From the IMG/VR virus record IMGVR_UViG_3300020420_000009, positions 32,001-96,000 of that record: 64,000 nucleotides of DNA, one strand, 5' to 3'. This document shows, one piece after another, positions 4,153-10,556 of the stretch. Position 1 is the stretch's first letter, and each line of letters begins with the position of its first letter. The position numbers and the translations under genes were made by a program. The notes below the pieces were generated by a model. It worked only from the letters and a program-made list of their open reading frames with translations. It did not search any database and was not told where the DNA came from. Source of the DNA: a virus.

Positions 4153-4413
4153 ATGGCAACTACAAATACTTTTGTTATTGAATACGGGATAAGTGTCGGG
4201 TCAACAGAGGTTATCAATAGCTCAGGTAAATTACAAGCGAGTGCAATCAGCACTCTAGATACGGATAATCTTTCAGAGGGTTCGACAAATCAATATTTCA
4301 CGAATGCAAGAGCAAGAGGAGCAATCTCACTTGCAAGTGGAGAAACTAATTTATCATATAATTCTTCAAATGGAGAATTGAGTTTGCCAACAGTTAATGG
4401 AGGCTCGTTCTAA
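4153..4413 (+). CDS. Small fibre-associated protein
   Basis: Shares its N-terminus and the LDTDNLSEGSTNQYFTNARAR motif with the 4413 ORF; ends in NGGSF. Confidence 0.7.
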   Translation: MATTNTFVIEYGISVGSTEVINSSGKLQASAISTLDTDNLSEGSTNQYFTNARARGAISLASGETNLSYNSSNGELSLPTVNGGSF

Positions 4414-6641
4414 TGGCAGATGTAAACTTTAAAATTAAAAATGGTCTATCCGTAGGGGATACCGAGGTATTAGACAGCTCAGGTGATTTAACTGCAGCTG
4501 CATTCGGAACTGCAGCCCTAGAAAAAATAGATGACCAAGTAAACTCTTTACTAACAGCAGGTTCAGGAATATCATTATCATATGATGATTCAGCAGGAAC
4601 ATTAACAGTCACGAGAGACGCAGAGACAGGAGACATTGAAGGAGTCACTGCTGGAGACGGACTTTCAGGTGGTGGAACAAGTGGAACAGTATCACTTGCA
4701 TTAGACCTAAACGAATTAACAGCTGCAACAGTAGATGTATCTGCCGATAGTATACCATTCATAGATGGCACTGCAACAAGAAAAGAAAGTATTTCAGATT
4801 TAGTATCAGGAATGGCTGGAACAAATTTAACTGCAAGTTCAGGAACATTAGGAATTGCAGATTCAGTTATTAGAGGAAAGATTAGTGCAAGTGGAGATTT
4901 ATCATATAACTCTTCAACTGGTGTAATATCATTTACAAATGACGCTGGTGACATAGAAAGTGTTGTTGCTGGTTCAGGTTTAACAGGCGGTGGCACATCA
5001 GGAGATGTCACACTAAATGTTATAGGTGGTGACGGTATTACTGCAAATGCAAACGATATTGCATTATCTTCATCAGTTGCAGGCGACAATCTTTCATATA
5101 GTTCAGGTGTCCTAGCAGTAGAACAAAATTTAACAAATTCTTCTGCACCATATTATCATAGGTCAATAGTCACCGTATCAAGTGGTAAATTCTTATTTGA
5201 CGGTCAATCGTCCTCACAAGCTTTAAGACTAACACCAAATGTAGTCTATAGATTTGACCAATCAGATAGTTCAAACGGTTCACACCCATTAAGATTCTCT
5301 GAATCAGCAGACGGTTCAGAAATGACAGACGGTTATTTAATCTATAACAAAGTTGGAACTCCAGGCTCTAGTGGTTCATATACAGAAGTTGCATTCGACC
5401 AAGAATCAAACAATCCTATGTATTTCTACTGTTCAAATCACAGTGGAATGGGTAATACAGTTATACTTGGTGGTGCAGAGAATACAGATTCATTAGACGA
5501 AGGTTCGAGTAATCTTTATCATACCACTGCAAGAGCAAGAGCAGCTATAAGTGCTGGTGGTGACTTATCATACAACAGCACAACTGGTGTAATGAGTTTC
5601 ACAAACGATGCTGGAGACATATCATCAGTCGTTGCTGGAGACGGTTTAACAGGTGGTGGAACAACAGGAGATGTCACACTTGCAGTTCAAGTAGATGATA
5701 GTTCTATAGAAACAGATTCAGATACATTAAGAGTAAAAGCAAGTGGTATAACAAATGCCATGTTAGCAGGTTCGATTGCAAATGATAAACTTGCTGGTTC
5801 GATTGCAAACGCAAAACTTGCAAATAGTTCTATAACTCTAAACTCTAATACAGTTGCATTAGGTAATTCACTTACATTAGATACAGACGATATCGGTGAG
5901 GGTTCAAGTGCCCAATATCATACAACAGAAAGAGTTCAAGATGTAGTTGGAGCTCAGATTGCAACTAATGGTTCACATACAAATATTACTGCAAGTTATG
6001 ACGACGCTGGAGACGGTGCAGTCGACTTATCAATCACAGATGCAGTAATCAGAGGTAAAATATCTGTCACAGATTCAGGTGGAGACGGTTCACTTGCATA
6101 TAATAACTCTACTGGTGTAATAACATATACTGGCCCAAGTGCTTCAGAAGTAAGAGCTCACATAAGTGCTGGAACTGGTGTAGGATTCTCAGGTGGTGCA
6201 GTTAGTATTGGACAGGCAGTTGGAACAAGTGATAATGTGACCTTTAACAATTTGGTTGTAGGTGGAAACCTAACAGTCAGTGGAACTACTTCAACAGTTA
6301 GTTCTACAAATACAACAATTTCAGATGCACTTATAGAATTAGGAAATGGAACATCAGGTTCTCCTTCAAATGACGCAGGTTTGGTTATTGAAAGAGGAAG
6401 TTCAGATAATGTGTTTATAGGTTGGGACGAAAGTGCAGACGCAATCACATTCGGAACAGGTTCATTTACTGGTGCTTCAACAGGTAATTTAACAATTACC
6501 CCAAGTGCAGTTAACACTGGTGCAGTCACAATTACAAATGCAACAAATAATGGTGGAACTGCAAGAAACATATATCAGTCAACCTCTGCACCTAGTGGTT
6601 CAGACGGAGCAGTTGGTGATTTATGGATTCTATACTCCTAA
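4413..6641 (+). CDS. Tail fibre protein with internal cupredoxin-like domain
   Basis: Repeated GDIxSVVAGxGLTGGGTSGDVTL units; YRFDQSDSSN.HPLRFS...YFYCSNHSGMG module; C-terminal APSGSDGAVGDLW fibre motif. Confidence 0.8.
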   Translation: MADVNFKIKNGLSVGDTEVLDSSGDLTAAAFGTAALEKIDDQVNSLLTAGSGISLSYDDSAGTLTVTRDAETGDIEGVTAGDGLSGGGTSGTVSLALDLNELTAATVDVSADSIPFIDGTATRKESISDLVSGMAGTNLTASSGTLGIADSVIRGKISASGDLSYNSSTGVISFTNDAGDIESVVAGSGLTGGGTSGDVTLNVIGGDGITANANDIALSSSVAGDNLSYSSGVLAVEQNLTNSSAPYYHRSIVTVSSGKFLFDGQSSSQALRLTPNVVYRFDQSDSSNGSHPLRFSESADGSEMTDGYLIYNKVGTPGSSGSYTEVAFDQESNNPMYFYCSNHSGMGNTVILGGAENTDSLDEGSSNLYHTTARARAAISAGGDLSYNSTTGVMSFTNDAGDISSVVAGDGLTGGGTTGDVTLAVQVDDSSIETDSDTLRVKASGITNAMLAGSIANDKLAGSIANAKLANSSITLNSNTVALGNSLTLDTDDIGEGSSAQYHTTERVQDVVGAQIATNGSHTNITASYDDAGDGAVDLSITDAVIRGKISVTDSGGDGSLAYNNSTGVITYTGPSASEVRAHISAGTGVGFSGGAVSIGQAVGTSDNVTFNNLVVGGNLTVSGTTSTVSSTNTTISDALIELGNGTSGSPSNDAGLVIERGSSDNVFIGWDESADAITFGTGSFTGASTGNLTITPSAVNTGAVTITNATNNGGTARNIYQSTSAPSGSDGAVGDLWILYS

Positions 6642-6667: not shown

Positions 6668-8071
6668 ATGGCGTCAGGTTCACAGAAAGTTAAAACCCCA
6701 TCAGGTTGGAATGCAACTCAAGGTGCATGGGTCAAGACAGGCCCGTCTACTTGGAAAGCAGTTGACCAAATTTATATTAAAGCTCCAGGCGGGTGGAATA
6801 ATGCTTCAGGTCAAGAGGCAGTGCAACAACCTTATCCATATATTGCACAGGGTGGTTCTCCATATATTGCAAATGCACAGAACCCATATCCCTATATTGC
6901 AAATGCACAGGAACCAAACATTAGGTCAGCACAACAACCTTATCCTTACATTGCAGACGGTGGGTCACCTTATATTGCAAATGGACAGGAACCTAATATT
7001 AGAAACCAACAGGAACCAAATATTCGTTCTGCACAGCAACCGTATCCATATATTGCAAATGCACAGGAACCTAATATAAGAAACAGACAAAATCCGTTTA
7101 CATACGACCATAGGTCACCTTTTACATATAATCACAGAAGTCCTTTTACATATGACCATAGGTCACCTTTTACATATCGTAATCCGTTTACTTACAATCA
7201 TAGGTCACCATTTACATATAACTATAGGTCACCGTTTACATACAGAAGTCCTGTGAGTGCTCAGGAACCTAATATTAGGAATGGACAGAACCCATTTACA
7301 TATCCAGCAAATATTCAACAACCGAATATTCGTTCTGCACAACAACCGTTTACATATCCAGCAAATATTCAACAACCAAATATTAGGAGTGCTCAACAAC
7401 CGTTCACATATCCTGCGAATATTCAGCAACCTAATATAAGAGACGCTAGGACACCGTTTACCTATCATGCAAGACAGCCGGGCAGTGCAAGACAACCAGT
7501 TCCTTTCTCATATCAAAGTCCATATATCGGAACTGCAAGACAACCAGTTTACTACCCAGGCGGTGGTTCACCAGGCTTCGGTGGTGGTTGTTTCGCAATG
7601 GGAACTATGATATGGATGAGCGACAATACATACAGACCAATCGAAACTATAGAAATTGGAATGTCAGTAATGACATTCGGAGAATCAATAGAGGTTGGAG
7701 TGGTCGAAGAACTTATGCAGCCTAGAGTGTGTGGGTTATACGATATAGAAGTCAACGGTAAAATTACTGGTGTGACTGGAGGACACCCATTCTTAGTTCA
7801 AGATAAAGGGTGGTGTGTTATAAACATGGAAGACTGGGAGCAAGAAGTTGCTGACGGTGTTGCTTGGGGTGGAGAAGTCTCAGGTGTAATTGAAGAGGGT
7901 GATATCCTTGTAGATTCATTATCATTGATTTTAAATAATCAATCGAATGCAAAGGTATCTAATATTAACAAATTGGAAGGAGAACATGAGGTCTATCACT
8001 TGGCTCGTGTAAGTGATAATGCGAACTTCTTTGCAAATGACTTTGTAGTCCATAACTTACAGAAGAGATAA
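6668..8071 (+). CDS. Fibre-associated repeat protein with C-terminal Hint (intein-like/BIL) domain
   Basis: Trp-rich N-terminal module, 29 Pro-delimited repeats, then GGG|CFAMGT...VTGGHPF...VYHL...NFFANDFVVHN. Confidence 0.85.
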   Translation: MASGSQKVKTPSGWNATQGAWVKTGPSTWKAVDQIYIKAPGGWNNASGQEAVQQPYPYIAQGGSPYIANAQNPYPYIANAQEPNIRSAQQPYPYIADGGSPYIANGQEPNIRNQQEPNIRSAQQPYPYIANAQEPNIRNRQNPFTYDHRSPFTYNHRSPFTYDHRSPFTYRNPFTYNHRSPFTYNYRSPFTYRSPVSAQEPNIRNGQNPFTYPANIQQPNIRSAQQPFTYPANIQQPNIRSAQQPFTYPANIQQPNIRDARTPFTYHARQPGSARQPVPFSYQSPYIGTARQPVYYPGGGSPGFGGGCFAMGTMIWMSDNTYRPIETIEIGMSVMTFGESIEVGVVEELMQPRVCGLYDIEVNGKITGVTGGHPFLVQDKGWCVINMEDWEQEVADGVAWGGEVSGVIEEGDILVDSLSLILNNQSNAKVSNINKLEGEHEVYHLARVSDNANFFANDFVVHNLQKR

Positions 8072-8804
8072 TATGCCATTTTATCAAAGTGTATATGCAA
8101 CTCAAGCAAGACAACCAGTTCCTGCGAGTTATCAGAGCCCATACGGAACTCAGAATCCTTACATTGCAAATGCAAGACAACCGTTTACCTATAATTATAG
8201 GTCACCGTTTACATATCAAGCACCTGCTAGAAACCCTTTCACTTATCATTATAGGTCACCCTTTACATATCAAGCACCCGCTAGAAACCCTTTCACCTAT
8301 AATTACAGGTCACCATTCACCTATCAGGCACCTGCGAGACAGCCTTTTACTTATCACTATAGGTCACCGTTCACTTATAGAAATCCAGTATCAGCACAAG
8401 AACCAAATATCAGGTCAGCACAACAACCGAATATTAGAGATGCACAATCACCAAGTAATGCACAACAACCTACTATTAAGTCAGCACAAGAACCAAACAT
8501 TAGGTCAGCACAGGAACCTAATATTAGGGACGCAAGACAACCTTCTACATATGATTATCGTTCACCTTCAACATACGAAAGACAGGGTCAAACACCTTTC
8601 ACATATGACCATAGGTCACCTTTAACATATTCACATAGAAGTCCGTTTACATATAGTAATCAGAACCCTACAACTTATGCAAGACAGGGTCAGACACCAT
8701 TTACTTACAACTATAGAAGTCCTTCGACATATGCAAGACAAGGTCAGACACCTACTACATACAGTAATCAAAACCCGACTACTTATGCAAGACAAGGTAG
8801 AACA
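6830..8804 (+). repeat. Imperfect tandem coding repeats (18/24/30-nt units) in two adjacent ORFs
   Basis: Recurrent aggtcaccNtttacatat and caggaaccNaatattag DNA units encoding PFTYxxRS, PNIRxAQx and PYPYIA; interrupted by the Hint domain. Confidence 0.85.
7589..8056 (+). other. Hint auto-processing domain, no C-extein nucleophile
   Basis: Cys1 (TGT 7589), TxxH block (TGGH), terminal His-Asn (8051-8056) followed by Leu-Gln-Lys-Arg-stop. Confidence 0.85.
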
Positions 8805-8867
8805 CCAGTTATTAGGTGGGACGGAGTCTTACAACAACAATGGCCTGGAACACCGATATCTAGTTAA
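8073..8867 (+). CDS. Repeat protein, mirror partner of the 6668 ORF
   Basis: Starts 1 nt after the upstream stop; almost entirely Pro-delimited repeats. Confidence 0.85.
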   Translation: MPFYQSVYATQARQPVPASYQSPYGTQNPYIANARQPFTYNYRSPFTYQAPARNPFTYHYRSPFTYQAPARNPFTYNYRSPFTYQAPARQPFTYHYRSPFTYRNPVSAQEPNIRSAQQPNIRDAQSPSNAQQPTIKSAQEPNIRSAQEPNIRDARQPSTYDYRSPSTYERQGQTPFTYDHRSPLTYSHRSPFTYSNQNPTTYARQGQTPFTYNYRSPSTYARQGQTPTTYSNQNPTTYARQGRTPVIRWDGVLQQQWPGTPISS

Positions 8868-8894: not shown

Positions 8895-10556
8895 ATGGAT
8901 ACTTTTGAATATATACAAACCCTAGACCGAGCAAAAGAGTTATTCAAACCCTATACTTCTTATGAGGATATGCCTACAAAGCAAGTTCAATTAGGTCAAC
9001 TCCCTGTTCCAAAACATAGAAAAGATACAGACGAAACAGAAGAAGTGTGGAGATACATTATAGATGAATGTATGCCTCCAATTAGATTAGTCACTTGGAA
9101 AGATATAAAACCTTTAATGGATAGTAAAGAGATTATGTCATGGGGTGGATTAGACCACAACGCATATCAATACTTAAATTATCTACATAAAGGTTGGACA
9201 GAAGAAAATAGACCCGACCACCCTCTCAAAGGTGGTTCTATGGATTATATGAATGCAGACGGTGAATACGAATGTCTTACTCAACCTACAATAAAAACAG
9301 CTTATGATAGGATAAAGTTTGCAGACAAATATGGATATGTAGAAGGAACTCAAGAATATGAAGACTTAATGAATGGAGTTATAGATATAACTCTTGATTC
9401 TGAAAAAGAAAATACAATATGTTCTATTTACTATCACGCTGCAAAAGCTCATTGGTTAATAAATGATATACAAAAGAATGGTCTCTGGCAACCTATTCAA
9501 GGTCTTACACACTACACAGGAAATCCAGGCGGTAAACATTCTTTATCTATACACCCTGGCTCAATGAGAAGTAGGTCTTTTCAATCAATGGATTATCCCG
9601 ATAATACTTGTCTTGTCACTGATTATAGTAATTGTTTTCCTAATCACCCTCGTTTAAGTATGGAAAATATAAGAGATTATTGGTTCTCTCTAATACCTAA
9701 AGAGGGTAGAAATGTAAATGCAATTTATACAGACCAAAGAAAAATAGAGTTTAGTCCCTCTTTAGTTCAAGGTGGTGGAACTGATTTTAGAAAATATGTT
9801 TATGCATATAATAAGAAAGTGACAAAGTTATGTAAAAAGAAACCTTTAAACATATACATTGGTTATGATTCTTCTCACGATAATATTATACATGAAGTTT
9901 GTGAAAAGTCAATACATGATAGCATAGAAAGGTCAAAAAGTAAAGGCGCAGGAGCGGATTACTTTAACGATTTTGAAATAGAAACTAAATTACTTGACAT
10001 AAGCAAAATAAAAGATTATAATAGAGACTATGCAAATCAATCTACTGAATTTACATATAGTAGATTTTTAATTCCATATCTAGAAAACTATGAGGGGTTT
10101 AGTATCTTTATAGATAATGATTACATATGGAAGAGAACTCCTTTACCATTTTTCTATTTTCTTGACCCCGACCATGCTGTTGCTTGTGTGCAATATGATT
10201 TTGAACACCATGACAGTGTAAAAATGGGTGGAGAAGTAAATATATCATATCCTAAAAAACTATGGTCTAGTATGATGATATTTAATAATGGACACGAAGA
10301 TTGTAAAAAGTTAACACCCGAAGTTGTTAATAATCAGTCAGGTAAATATTTACATCAGTTTGAATGGACAGATAAAATTAGTAAAATACCTCATGGAAAA
10401 ATTGCAACAGAAGGATTTGAAACAGAATGTCTTGATTCACACCATGCAGTCCATTATACAAGGGGTGGGCCATGGATAAAAGGCATGGATTGTTCAAACA
10501 TAAATATGTTAGAACAATTTTATAAAGTGAAAAGCACCTTGCCAACAAACAAATAA
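8895..10556 (+). CDS. Glycosyltransferase (GT-A fold C-terminal domain) fused to an unknown N-terminal domain
   Basis: NIYIGYD...STEFTYSRFLIPYL...FIDND (DxD)...WSSMMIFN...HYTRGGPW. Confidence 0.8.
   Translation: MDTFEYIQTLDRAKELFKPYTSYEDMPTKQVQLGQLPVPKHRKDTDETEEVWRYIIDECMPPIRLVTWKDIKPLMDSKEIMSWGGLDHNAYQYLNYLHKGWTEENRPDHPLKGGSMDYMNADGEYECLTQPTIKTAYDRIKFADKYGYVEGTQEYEDLMNGVIDITLDSEKENTICSIYYHAAKAHWLINDIQKNGLWQPIQGLTHYTGNPGGKHSLSIHPGSMRSRSFQSMDYPDNTCLVTDYSNCFPNHPRLSMENIRDYWFSLIPKEGRNVNAIYTDQRKIEFSPSLVQGGGTDFRKYVYAYNKKVTKLCKKKPLNIYIGYDSSHDNIIHEVCEKSIHDSIERSKSKGAGADYFNDFEIETKLLDISKIKDYNRDYANQSTEFTYSRFLIPYLENYEGFSIFIDNDYIWKRTPLPFFYFLDPDHAVACVQYDFEHHDSVKMGGEVNISYPKKLWSSMMIFNNGHEDCKKLTPEVVNNQSGKYLHQFEWTDKISKIPHGKIATEGFETECLDSHHAVHYTRGGPWIKGMDCSNINMLEQFYKVKSTLPTNK

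Follow-up and report, generated by a model that had tools for sequence, protein, structure and literature searches.

A 64,000-nucleotide stretch of viral DNA, bases 32001-96000 of the 129.7-kb IMG/VR virus record IMGVR_UViG_3300020420_000009 (hereafter the window), carries two consecutive fibre-like genes, A and B, whose products are built from repeat units in mirrored order, and the product of gene A ends in a Hint domain placed at the turn between the two arrays. We best read this 156-residue domain as a mini-intein-sized Hint of the type A bacterial intein-like (BIL) kind, and it is most likely an optional module, placed at the distal turn of the fibre that A and B form and unneeded for the pairing of A with B. 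Judged from the sequences of the domain and its relatives, it would probably (we put this at roughly 0.6) be a C-terminal module that removes itself from the fibre protein, acting either by cleavage or by re-ligation of the short tail that follows it.

Gene A (6668..8071, + strand; delimited by the list of open reading frames (ORFs), by homologues and by synteny) encodes 467 residues. Its conserved N-terminal domain (residues 1-54, MASGSQKVKTPSGWNATQGAWVKT...; 6668..6829, +) shows about 40 invariant columns in 24 aligned A proteins and is likely the end that is joined to the virion; it is followed by residues 55-296 (6830..7555, +), which the unit parse divides into proline-punctuated units of 6, 8, 10 or 12 residues (PYIA, PNIR and PFTY types), and by a Gly-rich linker, PGGGSPGFGGG (7556..7588, +), that ends in Gly307 at position -1 of the Hint domain. 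Residues 293-307 read PVYYPGGGSPGFGGG, and residue 293 corresponds to base 7544, from which a preliminary description of this DNA, made from the letters alone, had counted the element. The Hint domain itself extends from Cys308 to Asn463 (7589..8056, +) and was assigned using AlphaFold2, Foldseek, profile comparison, conservation and the ratio of non-synonymous to synonymous substitution rates (dN/dS); behind it stand the four-residue 'C-extein' LQKR (8057-8068, +) and a TAA stop (8069-8071, +). The features named in the preliminary description are all found in the sequence: Cys1 (Cys308, 7589-7591), the block B motif TGGH (residues 370-373, 7775-7786), the terminal His462-Asn463 (8051-8056) and the LQKR-stop end, as well as the start of gene B, whose ATG at 8073 lies one nucleotide past the A stop in the +1 frame. 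The residues for an N-S acyl shift at the Gly307/Cys308 junction are also present in the Hint domain, and both the alignment and the AlphaFold2 model show the 156 residues to be free of an endonuclease insert.

For comparison we used 81 syntenic loci, namely the window and 80 stretches kept out of 315 related ones in IMG/VR, and 29 of these loci encode a Hint-bearing A protein. Gly at position -1, the Cys-Phe start and the T/SxxH motif are each found in 29/29 of them and the terminal His-Asn in 28/29, the exception being locus L084, which ends ...LVDSVIDRGNN. It had been pointed out that no Cys, Ser or Thr follows the Asn, and this holds in the window, where the +1 residue is Leu, and throughout the 29 loci, with G, F, I, R, L, M, Y or A at this position; Ser at +1 occurs in P0194, a relative from the database. 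The tails after the Asn are 4-27 residues long, and Lys occurs within the last three residues of 24/24 distinct Hint-bearing tails versus 13/30 Hint-less A proteins; this contrast follows phage clades and is not independent, and we therefore set it aside as evidence for a Lys acceptor. The dN/dS values of the Hint domain lie between 0.13 and 0.34 in 9/9 pairs, and by this sequence measure the domain is under purifying selection where it is present.

The Pfam family Intein_splicing matches A with 27.6 bits, under the cut-off of 35.8, and Hom_end_hint and Vint match more weakly; PHROGs and NCBIfam gave no family for A or B, and tblastn with A against 50,697 phage records (low-complexity filter on, near-identical records possibly absent from the set) gave no match. 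A search of 1.84 billion proteins returned 701 matches at E <= 0.001, 84 of them at <= 1e-10, and a 39-row alignment was drawn from the relatives. While the single-sequence AlphaFold2 prediction of A 283-467 was unusable (predicted local distance difference test (pLDDT) score of 28), the alignment-based model reached a mean pLDDT of 92.6. Foldseek placed BIL2 of Tetrahymena BUBL1 (6y75/6tmm; E 1e-9, TM 0.75/0.84) first in the PDB, followed by the C. thermocellum BIL 2lwy and then by mini-inteins and hedgehog 1at0: there were 59 PDB matches at E <= 0.001, and all 46 listed were BIL, intein or hedgehog domains. On the modelled fold, the domain is thus placed in the HINT superfamily. A profile of 23 phage copies compared with the PDB gave 1.8e-13 for BIL2, 2.3e-13 for 2lwy and 1e-9 for the best intein, so that the Hint domain is closer to known BILs than to inteins, by a modest margin. 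Among database proteins, P0001-P0004 are homologues of A with 58-99% identity across the Hint part. The candidates L003-L005 align with the last ~40 residues only, and L003 has Cys after His-Asn; we took these to be ordinary inteins and set them aside.

In its sequence the domain has the make-up of a putative type A BIL: a Cys nucleophile, a block B TxxH motif, a terminal His-Asn and no Cys, Ser or Thr at +1. It resembles the type A BIL 2lwy in its HINT fold, mini-intein size, Cys1, TxxH and His-Asn, in having no +1 nucleophile and no endonuclease, and in its host, a variable protein of extracellular type rather than a conserved enzyme site; it differs in standing in a phage fibre protein, four residues from the C-terminus with a tetrapeptide as 'C-extein', in being present or absent among orthologous phage genes and in that its activity is a prediction from sequence. 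Hedgehog Hog domains are not known to have the intein-like terminal His-Asn. Hog is alike in being a C-terminal Hint that cleaves between Gly and Cys-Phe via a thioester, with the N-terminal product as the working protein, and unlike in carrying a sterol-recognition region after the Hint for transfer to cholesterol, whereas the window protein has His-Asn and then LQKR alone and is thus without an adduct-recruiting region. BUBL1 BIL2 (6y75, 6tmm) likewise follows a flank ending in Gly-Gly, and the residue after its His-Asn is no nucleophile; the BUBL1 domain is, however, eukaryotic, has ubiquitin-like domains on both sides and shares ~20% identity with the window domain, which has only LQKR downstream. 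A canonical class 1 intein is not what we find, with Leu at +1 and a confirmed stop four residues on, and neither is a mobile one, given the absent endonuclease insert and a Hint tree that recovers the phage clades. Nothing stands downstream of the Hint as it would in PT-HINT proteins, and PT-HINT is not among the Pfam matches of A, although it does match cellular relatives of the domain. The C-terminal Peptidase_S74-type chaperone domains of phage tailspikes and fibres, which remove themselves after assembly by means of a Ser-Lys dyad, are a functional analogy only; their fold and chemistry are unrelated to those of Hint, and no Peptidase_S74 match was found in A with Pfam or PHROG. In type A BILs, which have Cys1 and His-Asn without a +1 nucleophile, mainly products of cleavage, at either end of the domain, are described; a minor splicing reaction is possible through aminolysis, in which the N-terminal thioester is attacked by the amine that Asn cyclisation releases (excerpts of PMC4031507 and PMC7664689). 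This route of Asn cyclisation and aminolysis had been overlooked in the preliminary description, although it is open to type A BILs (PMC4031507, in excerpt). For BUBL BIL2, an isopeptide bond with a Lys epsilon-amine is described, by which the ubiquitin-like flank is conjugated to other proteins without ATP (excerpt of PMC8616854).

The Hint domain is optional within this gene pair: B and the mirrored order are kept with or without it. Across the 81 loci, A bears the Hint in 29, is short and Hint-less in 41, has a globular end in 9 and is unreadable in 2. In the 41 short loci A has the same Tyr/Phe-rich unit and Gly-rich linker and stops just beyond them, its tail being similar and likewise short (linker end, for example, ...LPGGGSPGHQQK). 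The window A protein ends ...QPVYYPGGGSPGFGGG-Hint-LQKR (linker ...PGGGSPGFGGG) and that of L007 ...QPVFFPGGGRGGG-Hint-RQQK (linker ...PGGGRGGG), and the Hint-less proteins of L060 and L064 end ...TPYQLPGGGSPGHQQK (...PGGGSPGHQQK) and ...VQLPGGGSPQIK, respectively; in another clade, L011 has ...VYFYGGGG-Hint-ISTK versus ...VVYFYGGGGGGGGFFPQQLK (...YFYGGGGGGGGFFPQQLK) in the Hint-less L047. With linkers and tails matching in this way, window A minus its Hint resembles, down to the tail, the orthologues that naturally have no Hint. Gene B (8073..8867, +) encodes a separate partner repeat protein of 264 residues, whose units run in mirrored order and whose C-terminus, ...RWDGVLQQQWPGTPISS, is conserved; with ...RWDG...QQWP.TP..S as the identifying end, B is present in 78/81 loci, including those in which A is short or globular-ended. 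Its N-terminus is MPFYQS in the window and in the Hint-less L019/L022/L025, and MATGF in both L011 and L047. In the nine loci with a globular end (L041:5001-6655, L065:5001-6774 and seven similar), A finishes ...TIKFIK or ...TLALF and a 92-95-residue ORF lies between A and B; this end may serve as a tip for receptor binding, with the small ORF product as its helper.

Read backwards from the Hint and split at leading prolines, the A units are 8,10,8,10,8,10,8,12,8,8,6,8,8,8,8,10,8,8,8,10,8,10,8,10 residues long, and an identical length series is obtained for the B units in forward direction, starting at residue 37 (B 119-132 being counted as 8+6); both series come from the proline parse and were compared by eye. 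Near the turn, A has 8,6,8,8 and then PVYYPG, and B, read backwards, 8,6,8,8 and then MPFYQS. Over 60 distinct A/B pairs the similarity in mirrored order averaged 0.70-0.76, versus 0.46-0.52 in forward order and 0.43-0.50 after shuffling, and with this cruder automatic score the mirrored order exceeded all 200 shuffles in 44/60 pairs; the mirror score is equal with and without the Hint. A residue-level k-mer comparison of A with B gave a weak negative rank correlation (-0.17): the mirror lies in the lengths and types of the units and not in residue order. The earlier placement of the Hint at the turning point of the arrays is borne out by unit parse and mirror score, which put it on the mirror axis, where it would adjoin the N-terminus of B if the two chains pair in antiparallel fashion. 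Lys is scarce in the repeat arrays, and Arg takes its place: of 6825 residues in the A arrays of Hint-bearing proteins, 7 are Lys and 544 Arg, and of 10019 in those of Hint-less proteins, 25 are Lys and 979 Arg (55 distinct loci, both states). Window B contains a single Lys (in PTIKSAQE).

The descent of the Hint was followed on a tree of the 553-residue gene downstream of B (76/81 loci, 52 distinct rows; IQ-TREE quick search, LG+G4, unrooted). The Hint state requires five changes on this tree, at least four of these changes being forced by well-supported branches. L006, L007/L008 and the window, each with a Hint, form a group inside a clade whose 11 other members are all Hint-less. In the tree of the 29 Hint domains each phage clade forms one group (support 97-100), which indicates that the Hint descended with the phages and made no recent jump. 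The simplest history suggested by these trees would be repeated loss or exchange of alleles by recombination, gain and loss not being told apart on an unrooted tree. In L026/L027, the downstream genes are near-identical (branch lengths 0.02-0.03) and the Hint domains only 44% identical, so that the A end appears to have been swapped between lineages.

For the self-removal that we favour, the following course can be proposed. After translation, Cys308 would attack the carbonyl of Gly307 and an N-S acyl shift would give a thioester; Asn463 would then cyclise, with His462 helping, and free the tail; the thioester would finally be resolved in cis, either by hydrolysis, which would leave A(1-307), or by an amine of the tail, whether already freed or still attached, which would re-join LQKR to Gly307. 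Leu464 could supply its alpha-amine for this attack, following the pattern of type A BIL splicing, or Lys466 its epsilon-amine, following that of BUBL BIL2. In either case the mature fibre protein would be like the Hint-less A of relatives and the Hint would be discarded; the resemblance of the four-residue tail to a Hint-less C-terminus points to a self-removal that restores the ordinary protein. Re-joining of the tail would be favoured by the kept Lys tail and its likeness to the Hint-less C-terminus, whilst plain cleavage would be favoured, by analogy, by the dominance of cleavage in known BILs and by the existence of Hint subtypes without the Asn. Of the outcomes raised in the preliminary description, hydrolysis to release a domain comes close to our best reading.

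A junction of this kind could also arise if A and B were in truth one gene with a canonical intein, the stop and the frame shift being errors of sequencing or assembly. The start of B one nucleotide past the A stop would fit this, as would the motif ARQPVP.SYQSPY, which stands on both sides of the Hint; the remaining observations speak otherwise. Contigs from three independent DNA studies (X7, X11 and X13) cover 7450-8223 or 7747-8223 with 0 differences and 0 indels, and an indel at 8050-8073, for which a check had been suggested, is absent, the three being identical across 8050-8075. The four database homologues P0001-P0004 all stop four residues past His-Asn (MQKR, MNKR, MNKR and RQQK), and the spacing from A stop to B start varies across the loci from a 1-nucleotide overlap to about 50 nucleotides and occurs in all three relative frames (in L002/L006 the B offset is +2, versus +1 in the window). 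The residue after Asn is never the Cys, Ser or Thr of an ordinary intein in the 29 loci, A and B are still separate genes where the Hint is missing, and fused homologues, proposed earlier as a useful comparison, were not encountered: 0/119 homologues longer than 462 residues combine the A N-terminal domain with the B C-terminal motif. The stop after the Hint is, on these sequence comparisons, genuine and no indel artefact, and because it is kept in homologues, because the A-B spacing varies, the contigs agree and no fusion is found, a single ORF with an intein is excluded as far as sequence data reach, its probability being next to nil. Metatranscriptome contigs (X15) align to stretches within the Hint and B (7669-8005, 8136-8286) with 0 differences, contigs from RNA libraries being no proof of transcription. 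In one locus (L059:2040-2522) the Hint appears as a separate 160-residue ORF from an internal Met (= P0010), and no in-frame N-terminal part of A was found there; either a break in the A gene or faulty assembly could account for this.

The predicted Gly307 thioester could instead be resolved by an amine outside A, giving a covalently closed hairpin at the fibre tip or a covalent attachment, and acceptors would be the N-terminal alpha-amine of B (Pro2 after removal of Met), the one Lys of B, a virion protein, or an amine on the host surface or of a small molecule; we regard this as unlikely. The last paired unit of A, PVYYPG, faces the first of B, MPFYQS, and is followed by a nine-residue Gly-rich linker, and antiparallel pairing would make Gly307 and the B N-terminus neighbours. 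In the loci that were read, the Met of B is followed by Pro, Ala, Val or Ser, all of which allow its removal by methionine aminopeptidase, and the repeats of Hint-bearing A are nearly free of Lys (7/6825). In addition, the nearest solved relative, BUBL BIL2, is reported to couple the flank on its N-terminal side to Lys amines in other proteins (PMC8616854, in excerpt). Against this, Lys is equally rare in the Hint-less arrays (25/10019), and both His-Asn (28/29) and a tail like that of Hint-less proteins would be needless for pure transfer. Furthermore, relatives without the Hint still have B, with unchanged N-termini, and the mirrored order, and covalent closure is therefore not needed for the fibre; the thioester that the preliminary description had offered as a means of closing the hairpin onto B thus goes unsupported, with 41/81 loci Hint-less and keeping both B and the mirror, B N-termini shared between Hint-bearing and Hint-less relatives and no natural single-chain A-B fusion among the 119 longer homologues. 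Ligation to B is possible in principle, but unsupported. A particular form of it, to which we give rather small odds, would have the BIL as a built-in ligase of the tip, the B N-terminus or another amine at the turn attacking the Gly307 thioester and welding the two antiparallel, mirror-coded chains into a single closed hairpin; if true, this would be a ribosomal, ATP-free protein-protein ligation in virion assembly. In a bolder variant, the uncleaved Hint on the virion would react with a host-surface amine on contact. Alternatively, the Hint could simply stay in place as the distal fibre tip, with a binding or latent reactive role, where other phages have a globular C-terminal domain: 9/81 loci carry a globular domain at the same place, which makes the turn a place for the exchange of tip modules, and purifying selection extends over the whole Hint. 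We consider such a retained domain to be distinctly improbable, as a structural domain would be expected to lose its catalytic positions, which are kept here (Gly -1 and Cys1 in 29/29, T/SxxH in 29/29, His-Asn in 28/29), and as the Hint-less short forms show that the tip can be bare.

Self-removal, which we prefer, has several points weighing against it. All of its chemistry is deduced from conserved residues and from relatives. A dispensable C-terminal domain should vanish fast, yet the Hint is old and constrained, which hints at a function. The 24/24 Lys tails versus 13/30 in Hint-less proteins, taken with the kinship to the Lys-isopeptide-forming BIL2, leave room for a transfer reaction; at the same time the contrast in tail Lys follows phage clades and is no independent correlation. 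The position on the mirror axis beside the B N-terminus may also not be a coincidence. The Hint could be a pro-domain at the turn, where it would time or aid folding, or else a passenger of long standing that is harmless only if active. That the domain is old and under purifying selection, although easily lost, favours some benefit. Its retention would make sense if it served as a pro-domain at the turn or in a transfer reaction, but not if it were a pure passenger.

Hint and BIL domains have so far been met in inteins, in Hedgehog proteins, in bacterial secreted proteins and at a ciliate ubiquitin-like locus. The papers that matched in full-text searches describe ordinary inteins in terminase or other enzymes (excerpts of PMC3556154, PMC5259590 and PMC5526547), and these searches, in a collection that covers a minority of subscription journals, turned up no account of a phage fibre with a Hint or BIL domain at its C-terminus. 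A terminal BIL on a phage fibre would add a use in virion maturation, in two fibre families and with three C-terminal subtypes (His-Asn with a Lys tail; ...HNK; and ...VDS without Asn). The natural presence/absence series in syntenic phages can reveal what the Hint adds, and its position at the turn of a mirror-ordered two-protein fibre makes covalent versus non-covalent closure directly testable. A compact BIL that is active after a poly-Gly flank could, moreover, be a tool for protein engineering.

The second fibre family, which has the same repeats and N-termini of the MSDDIF..., MSDEIY... or MADEIW... type, also has a terminal Hint (P0353-P0414). There the Hint stands after an acidic junction (...EEEDDCPQC, then the Cys of the Hint) and ends either in ...LVDSVIQRGKE without the Asn or in ...YVVHNK. 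Alleles without a Hint terminate at the acidic linker; P0181, for example, ends ...FPEDDEEEEGV, and its Hint-bearing counterpart P0358 has ...FPEEEEENDCPQC-Hint. The A protein of L084 (L084:5001-6266) carries the Asn-less kind of Hint. Since Asn-less subtypes occur, the feature that all Hint subtypes are predicted to share is release by cleavage at the N-terminal junction. BFVD contains uncharacterised phage proteins with Hint folds, some of them annotated with collagen or fibronectin III repeats. In cellular proteins, a crude text search found His-Asn within 30 residues of the end in 82/153, with Lys the commonest +1 residue (41/82); P0019, P0050, P0071 and others are cellular and have the Hint, then His-Asn-Lys and then a stop or a few residues. 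The cellular Hint proteins include RHS-core/PT-HINT types and secreted-looking proteins of 1300 residues.

The large ORFs of the window all lie on the + strand and include a T4-like tail sheath, portal, scaffold, major capsid protein and large terminase. Methylophilales phage Melnitz and the Pelagibacter phages HTVC008M and Mosig have major capsid proteins with 64-67.5% identity to the one encoded here; these structural genes and identities lead us to assign the DNA, on sequence grounds, to an uncultured marine T4-like myophage. A 742-residue fibre protein (4413-6641, +) is the first of the fibre-like gene run that holds A and B, and a 553-residue protein (8895-10556, +) follows directly after B. 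Its C-terminal half resembles nucleotide-sugar glycosyltransferases, with 30-39% identity to phage genes annotated as glycosyltransferase or nucleotide-diphospho-sugar transferase; as a sugar transferase gene adjoins Thr/Ser/Tyr-rich fibre genes, the fibres may be glycosylated. The gene order (742-residue fibre, A, B, 553-residue gene, 191-residue gene) is kept, each of the flanking genes being present in 78/81 loci by tblastn. Sequencing runs from nine studies of marine or seawater metagenomes match the stretch over the Hint and B, which indicates that this type of phage is widespread.

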